Origin: Sphingomonadaceae bacterium
GTDB lineage: Bacteria; Chloroflexota; UBA6077
Reading direction: 5' to 3'
NCBI GenBank assembly: GCA_050261575.1
Contig: JBLNDL010000040.1
Location: 1-46,275 of the forward strand
Length of the DNA: 46,275 bases
Positions 9,001 through 15,000 of this stretch are shown here, piece by piece. Position numbers: made by a program. Numbering within the stretch: the stretch's first letter is position 1; every line of letters starts with the position of its first letter.

Positions 9001-12000
9001 GCTCGTAGAGGTAGATGCAGGGCTCCCCATCGGGCCGCACCGCGTGCCGGGCCAGCCAGTCCTCCAGGGTGCGCGCAGCCCTGGTGTATCGGTTGTTGGA
9101 GGCGTCATCCTCCGGGAACTCGAGCCCCAACTCCAGCCGCACAGCATTGAAGGGGCTCCTCCCATACAGGTTGATCTGATCGACGGCGGAGATCACATCG
9201 TAAGGAGGGCACACCACCTTGCCGATGGGTCCTACCACCGTCTCGTCGAATCTCAACCCACGGAAGGCGCGGATATCGTTCATTGATCCTCCACATGTCG
9301 GCTGTCAACGATCGGCCGCGAGCTTCTGGTCTCCCCACTCGCAACTGCCACGGCCGAGGGCTCGTGCATAGCCTACCATCTATGCGGGCACGGGTTCAAA
9401 CCCGAGGCCCAGTCCATGCACGTATAATGCTGTTGTACTGTGGTTGACGGACCGGCGCACCCCTATCGAAACCGCGGAGGGAACGAACGTGAGCGACGAA
9501 GAGTTCCGCATGGCCCTCACTTACGACGACGTACTGCTGGAGCCGAAGCACTCCGCCATAGTCTCACGACGGGACGTGGACACCTCCACCCGTCTGTCCC
9601 GCCACATCTCTATGGCCATCCCCATCGTCAGCGCGAACATGGACACTGTCACGGAGTCGGCCATGGCTATTGCGATGGCACGGATGGGAGGGATCGGAAT
9701 CATCCATCGCTTCCTGCCCATTCAACGGCAGGCGGATGAGGTCCGGCGGGTCAAACGGTTCGAGGGATGGGTCATCGAGGATCCCTACACCATCGGGCCA
9801 AACGACGAGGTGGCAGACGCCCGCGTTGCCATGACCAGGCACGGCGTCAGCGGCCTGCCAGTGGTGGACGAGCGCGGGCGGTTGGTGGGAATGCTCAGCA
9901 GGAGGGACATTCTCTTCGCCGCCGACTCCGAGCCGGTGAGGGCTCGGATGACCCCCCGAGACCGGCTGATCACGGCGCCGGCCGGCAGCGGGACCGCCGT
10001 TGCCAGGCAGTTGATCGAGCAGCACCGGGTGGAGAAGGTGCCACTGGTGGATGCCGGCGACATCCTCAGGGGGCTGGTGACCGCAAAGGATCTGGTCCGG
10101 AGTCTGCAATTCCCCTACTCTACCAAGGATTCGAAGGGGAGACTGAGGGTGGGAGCAGCCATCGGGGTAGTCGGCGATTACCTGGAACGCGCCCACGCCC
10201 TGGTCGAGGCGGACGCGGACCTCCTGGTGGTGGATGTGGCCCACGGCGACACGGATCTGGTTATCCGGGCCGTGGAGGCCGTGCGGCGCACGCTCGGGTC
10301 GGTCGAGTTGGTGGTGGGGAACGTGGCCACGGCAACGGGCACGGCCAACCTGATCTCGGCCGGCGTCGACGCCGTGAAGGTGGGCGTTGGCCCGGGCTCC
10401 ATCTGCATCACCCGAATGGTGGCGGGAGTCGGCGTGCCCCAGCTTACCGCCGTAATGGACTCCGCCCGTGAGGCGGCCAAGACCGGCGTCCCGATCATTG
10501 CGGACGGTGGCATCCGCAACTCTGGGGACATCACCAAGGCTCTGGCTGCGGGCGCCTCCTCGGTGATGATCGGCAACCTGCTGGCGGGCACCACCGAGAG
10601 CCCGGGGCTGACGATCCGTCGGGGTGGGAGGCCGTACAAGATCAGCCGGGGCATGGCATCCGCCGAAGCGGCGATAGCCCGGATGGAGCGAGAGCATCCG
10701 GAGCGGGGCTGGGCGGAGTGGGAGGATTCCCTGGAGCAGGTGGTCCCGGAGGGGGTGGAGGCTGCGGTACCCTACCGGGGGGACGCGAGCGAGGTGGTCT
10801 TCCAACTGGTGGGAGGTCTGCGCTCCGGGATGAGCTACTGCAACGCCCGAAACCTGGGGGAGCTTCAGCTCAACGCCAGCTTCGTCCGCATCACGGAAGC
10901 GGGACGTCGCGAGAGCGGCCCCCACGACGTCGAGTTGATGGGCTGAGAGGAGCCCTGAGTCCTGTGTGGTGTCCACACAGGACTCAGGACACAGGACTCG
11001 GGAGGGAGAGAGATGCCTCCACAGAGATACGAGGGAACGGTTCGCGCCCCGGACTTTCCGGCGGGGCTGGACTGGCTGAACGTCGACCACCCGCTCAGCC
11101 TGCGAGAGCTGCAGGGCAAGCTGGTGCTGCTGGACTTCTGGACCTACTGTTGAATCAACTGCATGCACGTGCTTCCGCAGTTGCGGAAGCTGGAGGAGAC
11201 CTTCCCTTCGGAGCTGGTCGTGGTGGGGGTCCACTCCCCCAAGTTCACCGCCGAGCGCTCCACACCTAACCTCAGGCAGGCGGTGCTGCGGCTGGGGATC
11301 CACCACCCGGTGGTGAACGACGCCAGCATGAGAATCTGGTCCGAATACGGCGTCGGAGCCTGGCCCACCTTGGTGCTGGTCGATCCCGCAGGAAAGGTGA
11401 TCGGCGGACACGAGGGGGAGTTCCGTTTCCAGGAGTTCCAGCCGCTCATCACCGACATCCTGGCGGAGTTCGACGCTAAAGGGATGCTGGACCGACGGGC
11501 CATCGCCTTCCAGCCCGAACTGCCCCCGGAGTCCACCCTCCTCTTCCCCGGGAAGCTGCTTGCCGACCACACCTCCAGCCGTCTGTTCATCGCCGACTCT
11601 GGCCACCACAGGGTGGTCGAGGCGGGGATGGACGGACGCGTGCATCGGGTGTTCGGAGGGGAACGTGGGTTCATGGACGGCACGCCAGAGGTCGCCGCCT
11701 TCGACACACCGCAGGGAATGGCGCTGGCGGGCGAGCAGCTATACGTGGCGGACACGTGGAATCACGCTATCCGGCGCATCGACCTGGCGACCGGAGAGGC
11801 AATCACAGTCGCTGGGACCGGAGAGCAGGCCAGAAGGGTGAAGGAGGGACCGGCCCTCTCCTCTCCCCTCAACTCCCCCTGGGACCTGGTCCTGCACCAG
11901 GGCATCCTCTACATCGCCATGGCCGGATCCCACCACCTCTGGGCCTACGACCCCGGCAGCCAGGAGGTCACCCGCTATGCAGGAACCGGACGGGAGGCGC

Positions 12001-15000
12001 TGGCGGACGGTCCCCTTCAACGAGCCGCGTTCGCCCAGCCCAGCGGCCTCAGCAGCGACGGACAAGTTTTGTACGTCGCCGACAGCGAGACCAGCGCCAT
12101 TCGAGCGGTGGATCTCCCAGGAAGGGCGGGAATGGTGCGCACCCTGGCAGGGCTGGGGCTGTTCGAGTTCGGGGACGTGGATGGCGTCGGCGAGCAAGTT
12201 CGACTCCAACACCCCCTGGGGGTCGCCTTCGATCCCTCGGAGGGAGTCCTCTGCGTGGCCGACAGCTACAACAACAAGATCAAGCGGCTGGACCCCGGCA
12301 GCCTAGAGACACGCTCGGTGGCAGGCAGCGGGCCCGGCGGTCTGCGCGACGGGGTGGGTGAAACCGCGACCTTCTGGGAGCCGGGTGGGCTTGCCTGGGC
12401 GCAGGGAAAGCTGTACGTGGCCGACACCAACAACCACGCCGTTCGGGTAGTCGATCTGGCCAGCCTGCGCGTCTCCACTCTCGAGATCAGAGAGTAGTAC
12501 CATAGTACTATAGCCCTCACTATATTCCGCTGATATACTGCCTGCGATCGTTAGCGCAGTTTAACTCTCTTTGGTTCTGTGTGACACGCCCTCGCCTCAT
12601 ACCGCTCGCATCGAGTGGCCGCTAAGCAGGTATCTCTGGATGGAGCACACGTCTCCCGCCAGAGAAGCTGACACGAACAGAGATACCTGCTTAGTCTTCG
12701 CAAGGGCTCGCCCGTCGAGGACTCGTCGCTGTTCTGCACGAGTATCTACTCTTGCGCGGGGGGCCTGTGGCCGTATCGTGAGTCCGAGTTGAACCGCACG
12801 CCTAGGACGACAGGAGGAACGAGCTGATGAAACGTTGCCGGTTACCGTTGACCCTTGCCCTCGGGGCCGTGTTGGCCCTGGCAGTGGCGGGCTGCGGCAC
12901 CGCACAACGGGGGTTGGAAGCGAACCCCCTGGCCACGACGTGGAGTATCGTCTCCCGGTTGGCTAGCGGAACCACCGACGAGAAAAGCAGCAACGGTAAG
13001 GCAGACACCCCCGCTGGCTGGCAGGCGGGAGACAGGTCTGGCAGCGCTGACAAGCCCAACTTCCTCAGCACTCGCGGTAGCAAGATCGTCGATGCCAATG
13101 GCAAGGAAGTGAAGATCACCGGCGTCAACTGGTTCGGATTGGAGACCGGCACGTTCGCCCCCCACGGGCTGTGGTCCAGAAACTGGGAGGAGATGCTGGA
13201 CCAGATCGCCGAGCTCGGCTTCAACACCATCCGTCTCCCCTACTCCAACCAGGCACTCGACCCCAGTAGCAAGGTTGGCGAAGGGGTGGACTTCAAGATC
13301 AATCCGGACCTGCAGGGCCTCACCGGCCTCGAGGTGATGGACAAGATCGTGGAGGGCGCGGGCAAGCGCGGCATCAAGGTCATCCTGGACCGGCACCGGC
13401 CGGACGTCAACTCCCAGTCGAAGCTGTGGTACACCGACCACCTGTCCGAGGATCGGTGGATCGCCGACTGGGTGATGCTGGCCAAGCGCTACAAGGGCAA
13501 CGACACCGTGATCGGCGCCGACCTCCACAACGAACCCGCCGGTGATGCCACCTGGGGCTCCGGCGATCCCAGGACGGACTGGCGGATGGCTGCGGAGAAG
13601 GCTGGAAACGCTATCCACGAGGTGAACCCCGACTGGCTGATCATCGTCGAGGGCATCGAGAAGGTGGGCGACAAGGACTGGTACTGGATGGGCGGCAACC
13701 TGAGCAAGGCGGGCGAGTCCCCCGTGAGGCTGAAGGTACCAAACAAACTCGTCTACAGCGCCCACGACTACGGCCCGGGGGTCTACTGGCAGGGGTGGTT
13801 CAAGGATGAGAGCTTCCCCGCCAACATGCCCACCGTCTGGGAGAGCCACTGGGGCTACCTTGCCAAGCAGGGCATCGCGCCCGTGCTGCTCGGCGAGTTC
13901 GGCGGCCGCTCCGTCGGCTCCGACACGGAGGGCGTCTGGCAGCGAAGCCTGATGGACTACCTGAAGGCGAACGGCATCAGCTACACCTACTGGTCGCTGA
14001 ACCCCAACTCCGGCGACACGGGCGGCATCCTTGCCGACGACTGGAAATCGGTCAACGACAGCAAGATGTCGGTGCTGTCCAACTACCAGGACAAGATGAT
14101 GCGAGTGGCGAGGCCCACTCAGATGGATCTCACCGCGGCTCCCAAGGCGAAGTAGGCAGACGTTGCTGGGGCGGGCCTGAGACCCGCCCCACGCCTTTTC
14201 CTGGCACCCTACCGCGCGACGACCCTGAACGTCGCCGCTTGCAGATCCTCCCCGTAGCTCTTCCCGCTCTCCTGTCCCGTCACCCGCACCCGCAGCGTGT
14301 ACTCCCCCTCGGGGAGATCTCCGGGCACCCTCCACTCCCAGTAGACGGCCCTCGCCTCCTCGACCGGCGCCCTAAAGCCGGACTGGCTCATCACCAGCAC
14401 GGGGCTCCCCTGGGATTGCCCCACCACCTCCACGCGAGCCGCCAGCGCCTCCTGCACCTCCGTAGAGGCACGGAAGGTCGTCACCAGCGTGACCCTGTCC
14501 AGATGCTCCACCGGACTCGGGGTCACAGTGGCTGTTATGTCCAACTGTGGGACCGTGGAAACCGCGGGCGCCCCACCGGTCCAATCCGTGCGCGCCAGGG
14601 GCGCCCTCATCACCGCCACGAGCATCCCCATCATCAGCAGTGCGAACCCCAAGGTTAAACCCACCGACCTGTTGCCAGCGATGGCCGTTGTCATCTTCTC
14701 TCCCAAAGTCTAGTGTTCTGTCGGCTCGAACACGAAATGTAGGGCAGGCCCTCTTGCCCTGCCGCCCGGTTCTTCGGCTACGTGTATGACGGTCCTGGAG
14801 GCGCCCCGGGGGGGGACGAGGCCCTGCCCTACTCCATCCTGCTACTGCGACAGTGGTATCTGCCAGCTAACCTCCGGCAGTTGCGGCGGGTGTCCCGCCT
14901 TCACAGTCAGGTAGCGGGAGTCCTGGTCGAGCGGCCCCGCGAAGTAGGCCCTGGCCAGACGAGTCCCCTGCTGCGGGTCCAGCTTCACGATGCCATCGAA

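Follow-up and report, generated by a model that had tools for sequence, protein, structure and literature searches.

The window, a 46,275-nucleotide stretch of contig JBLNDL010000040.1, carries two adjacent gene calls, of 46 and 444 amino acids, that the earlier note had taken for a single reading frame interrupted by one in-frame TGA. The sequence bears this out: one frame of 494 codons extends from 11013 to 12497. The upstream ORF (11013–11153) encodes 46 amino acids and is closed by the TGA at 11151–11153, the second call starts with an ATG at 11163 in frame with the first, and translating the TGA as U yields a single 494-aa product with the motif FWTYC-U-INC, in which U is residue 47. The features of the locus are:

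11000–11012, + strand: purine-rich, putative ribosome-binding stretch GGGAGGGAGAGAG, abutting the ATG
11013–12497, + strand: predicted selenoprotein coding sequence, 494 codons, with UGA as Sec codon 47 and stop codon TAG at 12495–12497, replacing the 46-aa and 444-aa calls
11040–11477, + strand: thioredoxin-like domain (TlpA/DipZ-like, Pfam Thioredoxin_8), approximately residues 10–155, from Pfam and alignment to 6gc1 and 7djj
11148–11162, + strand: active-site codons C46-U47-I48-N49-C50, where U47-x-x-C50 would stand in for a CxxC redox pair
11151–11153, + strand: in-frame TGA, read as selenocysteine, in an identical column in all relatives inspected
11171–11190, + strand: SECIS-type hairpin GCUUCCGC-AGUU-GCGGAAGC, from comparison with relatives
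11172–11178 and 11183–11189, + strand: conserved 7-bp stem of this hairpin, with AGUU loop at 11179–11182 (stem and loop at +22 to +39)
11535–12482, + strand: six-bladed NHL beta-propeller, approximately residues 175–490, from Pfam NHL, the predicted model, and Foldseek matches to 6g7w and 7djj

Were the TGA a true stop, the gene would be split or broken, leaving only a 444-aa product from the ATG at 11163, or nothing functional. Such a product would comprise the propeller and a thioredoxin fold with neither the first strand nor the active site. Gene callers and public databases do carry a form of about 445 aa, and the 17 closest database homologs (65–99% identity) are 440–473 aa long, i.e. 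of the truncated form. However, the 46 codons before the TGA are conserved at the protein level and align with NHLRC2 and SOQ1 from residue 6–11 on, and phmmer homology to both proteins spans residues 6 to 492 of the read-through protein. Furthermore, the codon at which the 444-aa call starts encodes Met in just 81 of 141 Sec forms, the other 60 lacking it, so this call cannot be an independent gene.

The TGA itself is conserved across relatives. A six-frame search of 66 genomes of class UBA6077 reproduced exactly the count in the earlier note, with 27 matches at E<=1e-40 in 24 genomes; all 26 matches covering the N-terminal domain carry one TGA, and the sole stop-free match spans residues 268–492 only. 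Two of the 24 genomes are flagged unpublished (G009 and G046), and 24 of the 26 TGA matches remain without them. In all 24 class loci that we translated, the TGA occupies the identical motif column. Scanning species genomes with a 27-nt degenerate pattern for F-W-T-x-C-U-I-N-C returned at least 119 loci, at least 118 of them in the right protein context; among the matches listed, copies are mostly from Chloroflexota and also from Planctomycetota, Rokubacteria, and NC10. In a phylum sample of 401 genomes, 82 matches cover the motif, 62 with one TGA and 20 as full-length, open Cys forms; TGC or TGT stands at the TGA column in 19/19 Cys-form relatives. Overall, more than 140 distinct sequences, with frames open on either side, have the TGA fixed in this one column. 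Two exceptions speak for a broken gene: class relative G010, which looks frameshifted, its upstream part being out of frame and its hairpin altered, and scan locus L179, which has an additional stop 43 codons downstream. Given the conserved upstream codons, the single TGA column, the unreliable downstream Met, and the covarying hairpin described below, we consider a split gene at this locus barely credible.

The hairpin lies where the earlier note had placed it, its first base (11171) 20 nt past the U of the UGA. Of its eight pairs, the outermost (11171/11190) occurs in this window alone; the conserved 7-bp stem starts 18 nt past the UGA, within the codons for L-P-Q-L-R-K. Bacterial SECIS elements require G-U in the apical loop and lie within an accepted range of distances from the UGA. 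Folded alone, the window's 71 nt are not significantly stable (z -0.79, equalled by 42 of 200 shuffles), so it is the relatives, not its own folding energy, that support the hairpin. Across 141 distinct Sec-form 60-mers, pairing is kept in 83% of cells, covariation scores 0.289 compared with 0.137 for shuffles (0/500 reach it) and 0.08–0.13 with slid partners, and two-sided changes occur in 103 cells against 43 in shuffles. Individual variants illustrate this pattern: the stem stays intact while the protein changes in CUUCCGC-AGUUG-GCGGAAG (encoding PQLAE), in GCGC/GCGC (encoding AQLR), and in the NC10 variant CCAGAGC-UGGAC-GCUCUGG.

Because the hairpin overlaps the conserved peptide LPQLRK, its conservation is partly at the protein level. 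Synonymous sites within the hairpin are frozen: 131 of 141 Sec forms use TTG for its Leu (Cys forms use TTG for 4 of 18 Leu residues, this gene for 3 of 54) and its Gln codon is CAG in 126/126, whereas the flanking codons vary freely (ATC/ATT 74/67, GAG/GAA 66/65). The hairpin is lost in most Cys-form relatives. Mean folding energy over +13 to +54 is -12.5 kcal/mol in Sec forms (n=143) versus -8.1 in Cys forms (n=19), with z-scores against shuffles of -1.84 and -0.03, respectively; the Mann-Whitney p of 4e-5 for this difference, like our other p-values, overstates the significance, as relatives are not independent.

A genuine selenoprotein also needs a decoding system, and all four components listed in the earlier note were recovered: tRNA-Sec (C12:15331-15425, 73.5 bits, ARAGORN anticodon tca), SelB, SelA, whose gene adjoins that of SelB, and SelD, whose own gene contains a TGA. 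SelD and two FdhA-like genes constitute three further TGA-containing selenoprotein genes in this genome; in each the in-frame TGA is followed by a hairpin with a GUU or GGUCU loop, whose stem starts 12 nt past the UGA, two codons closer than the 18 nt seen here. No NCBIfam selenoprotein model recognizes the read-through protein at its cut-off, as previously noted; the best, NF041054, reaches 23.7 bits against a required 300.

We considered whether the TGA could instead be read through without selenium, under a reassigned code or through a near-cognate or suppressor tRNA that places Cys or Trp there, with the hairpin merely slowing the ribosome. Cys is evidently tolerated at this site, as in the 20 Cys forms of the phylum sample, and the two forms are intermingled in the tree, where one clade within family f37 (100% SH-aLRT) comprises three Sec and three Cys forms. 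By contrast, guaB in the same window ends with TGA, an ordinary stop there; the genome encodes a complete Sec system; and the hairpin matches those of the genome's other selenoprotein genes in size, place, and G-U loop. SelA is present in 57 of 58 Sec-form genomes tested, although this co-occurrence is weakly discriminating because SelA is common across the phylum (16/19 Cys-form genomes; 308/401 genomes of the phylum sample). Selenium-free read-through thus seems to us highly improbable, if a shade less so than a split gene. The conserved TGA, the covarying downstream hairpin, and the genome's Sec machinery together support the selenocysteine reading, for which the case is strong but computational. 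By comparison with relatives, the 7-bp AGUU-loop hairpin would recruit SelB and tRNA-Sec, which would decode the codon-47 UGA as selenocysteine. Very probably, the region is a single gene whose product is a two-domain, cytoplasmic selenoenzyme belonging to the NHLRC2/SOQ1 family.

The family assignment made in the earlier note, a thioredoxin-like domain followed by an NHL propeller, is upheld by both sequence and predicted fold. The N-terminal domain matches PF13905 with 55.8 bits (cut-off 27; residues 35–129) and, more weakly, AhpC-TSA (PF00578, 36.3 bits) and Redoxin (PF08534, 27.5 bits); the propeller matches Pfam NHL at 1e-31 and has 24 strands in the predicted model. Over both domains, phmmer gives 1.2e-116 to SOQ1 (7djj) and 3.7e-114 to NHLRC2 (6gc1). 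When U is read as C in the search, FWTYCCINCMHVLP aligns identically to SOQ1 and NHLRC2 except at U47, which coincides with the second CCINC cysteine, where the CxxC pair begins. The first Cys of the motif varies: 2 of 24 class Sec forms have G or S there, and 4 of 19 Cys forms have G. The predicted model (pLDDT 89.8; Foldseek TM 0.93–0.94 to 6gc1 and 7djk over both domains, rmsd 1.7–2.2) reproduces the NHLRC2/SOQ1 domain arrangement, with the propeller packed to form a cleft and helix 48–63 beginning immediately after U47. The loop W117-P118-T119, invariant in 20 aligned homologs and aligned with WPT of NHLRC2 and SOQ1, is a putative cis-Pro loop opposite the motif.

The protein stops at residue 494 and, as the earlier note stated, has no C-terminal domain; a weak test with one query (the C-terminal region of P0020) found no match to the C-terminal beta domain elsewhere in the genome. 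Human, plant, and long bacterial members carry this domain, with a Cys pair. Its absence does not exclude membership, as the available sections of PMC6107167 already describe a bacterial subgroup without this domain, in Chloroflexi among other phyla, as Cys proteins only. The data support membership in the NHLRC2/SOQ1 family, short of strict orthology. The read-through protein has no signal peptide; most likely it works in the cytoplasm as a selenol/thiol oxidoreductase, with the propeller as the docking site for its substrate.

By analogy with CxxC and UxxC enzymes and with SOQ1 C431/C434, U47 would occupy the N-terminal, nucleophilic CxxC position where helix 1 begins, and would face the inter-domain cleft. 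Its selenolate would attack an oxidised sulfur (a disulfide, a sulfenate, or possibly methionine sulfoxide) of a propeller-docked substrate, forming a selenenylsulfide intermediate that C50 would resolve, and a cytoplasmic thiol system would re-reduce the enzyme. The earlier proposal that the second CCINC residue is the redox nucleophile gains independent evolutionary confirmation from the Sec form; the idea is not new for SOQ1, where C431 and C434 are already treated as a redox pair, with C431 as the exchange partner, in the available part of 10.1101/2021.03.16.435614. The substrate chemistry is a guess: as far as the accessible text of PMC6107167 goes, no insulin-reductase activity was found for NHLRC2, and the C-terminal domain, the proposed catalytic end-point of SOQ1 in the portion of 10.1101/2024.11.01.621559 available to us, is missing here.

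A genuine selenoprotein could still use its UxxC centre for chemistry other than disulfide reduction, being itself a peroxidase or a methionine-sulfoxide reductase. Some MsrA and MsrB enzymes use Sec for catalysis. The AhpC-TSA and Redoxin matches point the same way, as do database homologs named 'alkyl hydroperoxide reductase' and the reduction of methionine sulfoxide in LCNP by SOQ1 lumenal domains, described in part of 10.1101/2024.11.01.621559. However, both Pfam matches score below Thioredoxin_8, the closest solved single-domain relatives (DipZ, ResA, and TlpA) are disulfide reductases, and the same partial source assigns the SOQ1 activity to the C-terminal domain, absent here. We regard peroxidase or Msr chemistry as unlikely, yet a far more serious contender than either reading without selenium.

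We found no report of a Sec form of the NHLRC2/SOQ1 family in the literature searched. Among the Chloroflexota carriers sampled, it outnumbers the Cys form three to one. Sec at the active site would mark this poorly understood family as a true redox catalyst, which matters most for NHLRC2, given the negative reductase result in the available text of PMC6107167. NHLRC2 is the protein mutated in FINCA disease. A tentative and rather doubtful extension is that the thioredoxin-like/propeller cleft may by itself be a complete catalytic unit, as the short, cytoplasmic Sec forms would show, in which the equivalent of NHLRC2 Cys90 directly reduces a propeller-held client and the C-terminal domain of the human and plant proteins is accessory. 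The oxidised client side chain could here be a sulfenate, a disulfide, or methionine sulfoxide. If so, the selenoenzyme would be a highly reactive version made by nature, with which the class of substrates long sought for NHLRC2 could be trapped.

Among known systems, human NHLRC2 (6GC1, 6G7W; 726 aa versus 494 aa here) shares an equal arrangement of thioredoxin-like domain and six-bladed NHL propeller (TM 0.93, 41% identity), C-C-I-N-C at the start of helix 1, a WPT cis-Pro loop, and a cytosolic location without signal peptide; the protein here differs in having Sec for the second Cys and in lacking both the C-terminal beta domain and a pair of additional helices at the N-terminus. The lumenal region of Arabidopsis SOQ1 (7DJJ, 7DJK) likewise pairs the two domains (TM 0.94), with U47 aligned to C431 and C50 to C434, a pair needed for qH suppression according to the available part of 10.1101/2021.03.16.435614. 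Unlike SOQ1, the protein here has no HAD domain, membrane helix, or C-terminal domain with its Cys pair; because these domains are missing, neither the proposed electron relay between the thioredoxin-like and C-terminal domains nor Msr action on LCNP, as outlined in the SOQ1 sources available in part, can run likewise. Published UxxC families ('Prx-like thiol:disulfide oxidoreductase' and 'Thiol-disulfide isomerase-like protein', compared by description only) also have UxxC in a TlpA/AhpC-like thioredoxin fold, with Sec for the first CxxC Cys. None is described with an NHL propeller, and the terms 'NHL', 'propeller', and 'Chloroflex' are absent from the main text of two selenoprotein reviews (PMC9312934, PMC13188914); the Sec form may be lumped into these families. 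The closest solved single-domain relative is the C-terminal thioredoxin domain of M. tuberculosis DipZ/cDsbD (2HYX, 5CYY; E 4.5e-24, residues 7–176), whose motif is given as S-C-I-N-C in the available sections of PMC6107167. In DipZ this domain faces the periplasm as part of a fusion with a CcdA-type membrane electron transporter, whereas here it is joined to a propeller and has no membrane part.

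Two adjacent gene calls at this locus had been proposed to be one 494-aa frame with a single TGA, and read-through translation of the window sequence bears this out. A 46-codon open reading frame (11013-11153, +) is terminated by TGA 11151-11153, and the second call, from ATG 11163 to a TAG at 12497, lies in the identical frame; reading the TGA as selenocysteine (U, Sec) gives a single 494-residue protein with the motif FWTYC-U-INC, in which U is position 47. Two short features accompany this frame:

Directly 5' of the selenoprotein ATG, + strand: purine-rich stretch GGGAGGGAGAGAG, read from the sequence
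11171-11190, + strand: candidate SECIS-type hairpin GCUUCCGC-AGUU-GCGGAAGC, from the window sequence

General reassignment of TGA can be ruled out as the explanation, since elsewhere in the window TGA serves as a normal stop: it terminates the IMP-dehydrogenase-like frame (9444-10946) immediately upstream of the selenoprotein gene. The alternative start at the gene caller's ATG is not conserved; among 141 distinct Sec-form sequences (homologs with the in-frame TGA at the motif), just 81 have Met at this codon. The 46 codons 5' of the TGA are conserved at the protein level and can be aligned to human NHLRC2 and Arabidopsis SOQ1.

The read-through protein belongs to the thioredoxin-like plus NHL family of these two proteins, as the earlier note had claimed. 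Pfam assigns residues 35-129 to a Thioredoxin_8 domain (55.8 bits), followed by NHL repeats (E 1e-31), with weaker AhpC-TSA and Redoxin matches; no NCBIfam model, and thus no selenoprotein model, reached its cut-off, again as reported earlier. Among all solved structures, searched with U47 entered as C, the top match was SOQ1 (7djj, E 1.2e-116, residues 11-484), with NHLRC2 among the best (6gc1, E 3.7e-114, residues 6-492); next came the C-terminal thioredoxin domain of M. tuberculosis DipZ, which covers the first domain only (E 4.5e-24). SOQ1 and the query share FWTYCCINCMHVLP without difference, which places U47 on the second C of the CCINC motif, where the TGA had been said to fall. An AlphaFold model built from 20 homologs (mean pLDDT 89.8, pTM 0.87) predicts a helix (48-63) that starts directly past U47, followed by 24 propeller strands. 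Foldseek superposed it on 6gc1 and 7djk (TM 0.93-0.94, rmsd 1.7-2.2 Å) across both domains, so that the predicted domain arrangement agrees with the two structures. The model thus computed predicts a thioredoxin fold beside a propeller, with U-x-x-C where helix 1 begins; a putative cis-proline loop (W117-P118-T119) is unchanged in 20/20 aligned homologs. The selenoprotein lacks an N-terminal hydrophobic segment and stops directly past the propeller, so the absence of a C-terminal domain, also proposed before, holds. Long bacterial Cys forms (homologs with TGC or TGT at the site; ~620-690 aa, mostly Acidobacteria-labelled) carry a signal peptide and a SOQ1-like C-terminal domain with a C-x6-C pair, both seen in the 656-aa homolog P0020. 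The short forms (~495 aa, Sec and Cys alike) have neither, which suggests a family split into a periplasmic (long) and a cytoplasmic (short) branch. A search of the source genome for a separate C-terminal domain with a single query, the last 133 residues of P0020, gave no match, a weak test for so poorly conserved a domain.

The TGA is conserved well beyond this genome. Repeating the search of the class UBA6077 gave the same outcome as before: 27 matches (E<=1e-40) in 24 of 66 genomes, with exactly one TGA in 26 and the remaining match spanning residues 268-492 only. At all 24 class loci that we translated, the TGA sits in one and the same motif column. An even sample of 401 Chloroflexota genomes (E<=1e-60) yielded 84 match rows in 82 genomes, comprising 62 with one TGA (61 genomes), 20 full-length open Cys forms and 2 partial matches; the Sec form thus occurs in 61 of the 81 sample genomes with a full-length homolog. 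The pattern persists without genomes flagged as unpublished, which contribute two TGA rows to each search (G009 and G046 in the class, G009 and G196 in the phylum) and one Cys row (G100). A degenerate pattern for F-W-T-x-C-U-I-N-C, run against a single genome of each species, matched at least 119 loci. Among the matches listed, 118 of 119 show family protein sequence in frame on either side of the TGA; the other, L158, is a chance match and not a family member. By record title, 93 of the 118 listed are Chloroflexota of several classes (Dehalococcoidia/SAR202, Thermomicrobia, Anaerolineales, Caldilineaceae, Ktedonobacteraceae and Chloroflexia among those listed). Another 22 of the listed loci carry other labels (Planctomycetota 11, Rokubacteria 4, NC10/Methylomirabilales 2, Acidobacteria 2, and Dormibacterota, Actinomycetes and Armatimonadota one each) and three lack a phylum name; almost all are metagenome bins, and single taxon labels may be wrong.

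Some loci stand apart. L041 (G010:C88:8318-9667) reads ...ISGPYS-U-INC, with its upstream portion out of frame and the hairpin altered, and L179 has a further stop 43 codons past the UGA; both may be decaying copies or sequencing errors. In genome G003 two Sec-form copies of equal score lie ~5 kb apart on one contig (C157:31136-32611, -, and 37858-39333, +), the result of an inverted duplication or of faulty assembly. Second frames in three genomes, thioredoxin-domain-only and with one in-frame TGA (G024:C1:350612-351034, G023:C20:169180-169617, G025:C1:1884561-1884983) match query residues 12-153 or 12-158 at 41-44% identity, the G023 match with an additional TAA; they may represent a separate TlpA-like UxxC selenoprotein of a kind already in surveys.

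A hairpin 3' of the UGA had also been put forward, and one is found at 11171-11190. By itself it folds no better than shuffled sequence (z -0.79), so the window hairpin alone cannot bear the claim; its support comes from comparison among relatives. We aligned 141 distinct Sec-form 60-mers from the TGA onward without gaps, omitting the unpublished loci L026 and L027 (L041 was missed by the motif filter). In helix columns 21-28 / 33-40, 83% of cells are paired, and the covariation score is 0.289 versus 0.137 in column shuffles (0/500 attain 0.289) and 0.08-0.13 with the partners displaced by 1-3 columns; both-side changes number 103 cells against 43 expected. The outermost pair, 21/40, fails to form in 108 of 141 sequences, which leaves a conserved stem of 7 bp (columns 22-28 / 33-39) with loop AGUU. 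The stem is kept where the peptide changes: CUUCCGC-AGUUG-GCGGAAG reads P-Q-L-A-E, with the 3' arm one base off frame, and CUCUCCC/GGGGGAG and GCGC-AGUU-GCGC (A-Q-L-R) are further such variants. NC10 bins have a different stem at the unchanged position (CCAGAGC-UGGAC-GCUCUGG).

Synonymous sites within the hairpin are frozen in Sec forms (Leu TTG 131/141, Gln CAG 126/126, Pro CCG 110/124, Arg CGG 107/123), while adjacent codons are free to vary (ATC/ATT 74/67, GAG/GAA 66/65); TTG makes up just 3 of the 54 Leu codons of the window's gene. Nineteen Cys-form relatives of the phylum have TGC or TGT at the site; their Leu codon is TTG in 4/18 and the hairpin is mostly lost. Mean folding energy over +13..+54 was -12.5 kcal/mol for Sec forms (n=143, including L026 and L027) versus -8.1 for Cys forms (n=19; p 4e-5, among relatives that are not independent), and folding z against shuffles was -1.84 and -0.03, respectively. 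Rfam at gathering thresholds matched nothing at the selenoprotein gene and only two tRNAs in the whole window, a result of little weight, as Rfam may be without a general bacterial SECIS model:

33409-33493, + strand: tRNA gene, Rfam RF00005, 51.4 bits
36477-36549, + strand: tRNA gene, Rfam RF00005, 61.9 bits

All four components of the machinery said to be encoded in the source genome were found: tRNA-Sec (73.5 bits; ARAGORN SeC, anticodon tca), SelB, SelA adjoining SelB, and SelD. SelD itself and two formate-dehydrogenase-alpha (FdhA)-like genes also have an in-frame TGA followed by a hairpin, so that the genome holds at least four selenoprotein genes:

G000:C65:2949-3887; G000:C18:15415-17412, - strand; G000:C6:44180-44941 and downstream (G000, source genome): SelD and FdhA-like genes with one in-frame TGA each

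The motifs at these TGAs are SCAG-U-AGK, HCART-U-HAP and NQARV-U-HSS, and the hairpins GGUCC-GUU-GGACC, GUGGCC-GGUCU-GGCCAC and GGUGCCC-GGUCU-GGGCGCC. Every one of their loops (GUU or GGUCU) contains G-U, as does AGUU; in E. coli the loop G-U is the SelB contact. Their stems start 12 nt past the UGA, versus 18 nt in the thioredoxin-NHL gene. Of 58 Sec-form genomes tested, 57 have SelA (the sole exception is 93% complete), as do 16 of 19 Cys-form genomes. This co-occurrence is consistent with the Sec reading and not sharp, a weak discriminator because 308 of the 401 phylum-sample genomes have SelA. Computation yields one frame, a conserved UGA, a covarying hairpin and Sec machinery in the genome.

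A quick, unrooted maximum-likelihood tree of 51 full-length proteins (32 Sec, 19 Cys; L026, L027 and L041 omitted) requires at least four Sec/Cys label changes, at least two of them forced by well-supported branches. The interleaved labels indicate that Sec and Cys were exchanged more than once. Within family f37, one clade with 100% support contains three Sec and three Cys forms, and the Cys form L059 retains a decayed stem, UUGCGC-AACU-GCGUGA. Interleaving inside one bacterial family, together with at least one Cys form with a decayed hairpin, makes a clean case of ongoing Sec/Cys exchange.

Gene neighbourhoods gave no clue to function: all-against-all BLAST of the open reading frames at 38 loci, flanks of 1.5 kb included, detected no neighbour common to several families. 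The guaB gene lies upstream solely in the window's family (4 loci), and another neighbour is common to f37 alone (5 loci), in agreement with an earlier account that, in its available text, reports no operon (PMC6107167). Two inverted repeats flank the gene:

10954-11002: perfect 16-nt inverted repeat CCTGAGTCCTGTGTGG / CCACACAGGACTCAGG, 3 nt spacing, between the guaB-like stop and the selenoprotein start
12622-12694: perfect 17-nt inverted repeat, 39 nt spacing, with a nested 13-nt repeat

The first includes a third, 93% complementary copy and no T-run follows it; possible identities are a terminator and a small repeat element. The second sits in the ~330-nt gap before a GH5-like frame (12827-14155) and has no Rfam match at gathering score.

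Full-text searches for NHLRC2 or NHL with selenocysteine or selenoprotein gave nothing relevant among the papers listed, in line with the earlier note. The terms NHL, propeller and Chloroflex are absent from the available main text of two reviews of prokaryotic selenoproteins, PMC9312934 (2022) and PMC13188914 (2026), the latter giving 'more than 110' families. Copies of the gene could be counted under UxxC families already in these reviews, with which it was compared by the descriptions that their available text gives. In a large protein collection with more than 8000 homologs at E<=1e-30, each of the 17 nearest sequences (65-99% identity) has a length of 440-473 aa, which corresponds to truncation at the TGA, and none bears a selenoprotein name; full-length Cys forms among the named homologs come from Acidobacteria, Latescibacteria, Phycisphaerae and Thermobaculum. 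Databases carry the truncated ~445-aa form as an 'NHL / lactonase-like' protein, and a widespread selenoprotein has thereby been overlooked. Sequence comparison indicates that a known protein family has a real and widespread selenocysteine form, as yet unannotated, and the correction concerns a Sec gene in at least 118 species-level genomes. Its use of Sec, UxxC in a thioredoxin fold, is ordinary among bacterial selenoproteins.

In the mechanism we propose, SelB and tRNA-Sec would insert Sec at codon 47. By analogy with CxxC/UxxC thioredoxin-fold enzymes and SOQ1, the selenolate would attack an oxidised sulfur on a client held in the cleft, C50 would resolve the selenenylsulfide so formed, and a cytoplasmic thiol system would recycle the enzyme. 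Selenocysteine is nearly confined to redox-active sites, and that it became fixed repeatedly at the first CxxC position is independent evolutionary evidence for redox catalysis by the family's thioredoxin-like domain. To that extent the claim that Sec marks the second residue of CCINC as redox-catalytic stands. The first Cys is not universal (G or S in 2/24 class Sec forms, G in 4/19 Cys forms), so the pair that matters is U/C47 with C50. This evolutionary support bears on the NHLRC2 family, where redox catalysis by the human protein is still contested because classical reductase assays are negative; the available text of PMC6107167 reports a negative insulin reductase assay. The bacterial protein, a small, soluble, two-domain enzyme lacking the C-terminal domain, offers a tractable system for substrate finding and Sec versus Cys comparison.

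SOQ1 is one point of reference. According to the available text, its function is abolished by C431S or C434S, substitutions in its redox pair, and in modelling C431 exchanges with the C-terminal domain (10.1101/2021.03.16.435614); a 2024 preprint, as far as available, describes electron transfer from the thioredoxin-like domain to its C-terminal counterpart, and a methionine-sulfoxide reductase activity that the lumenal domains exert on LCNP (10.1101/2024.11.01.621559). Whereas SOQ1 has that C-terminal domain, the short Sec forms do not, and they must therefore act directly or via a separate partner. NHLRC2-like bacterial homologs without a C-terminal domain are known, with Chloroflexi among the phyla (PMC6107167, available text); those described there are Cys proteins, whereas the protein encoded in the window is a Sec form.
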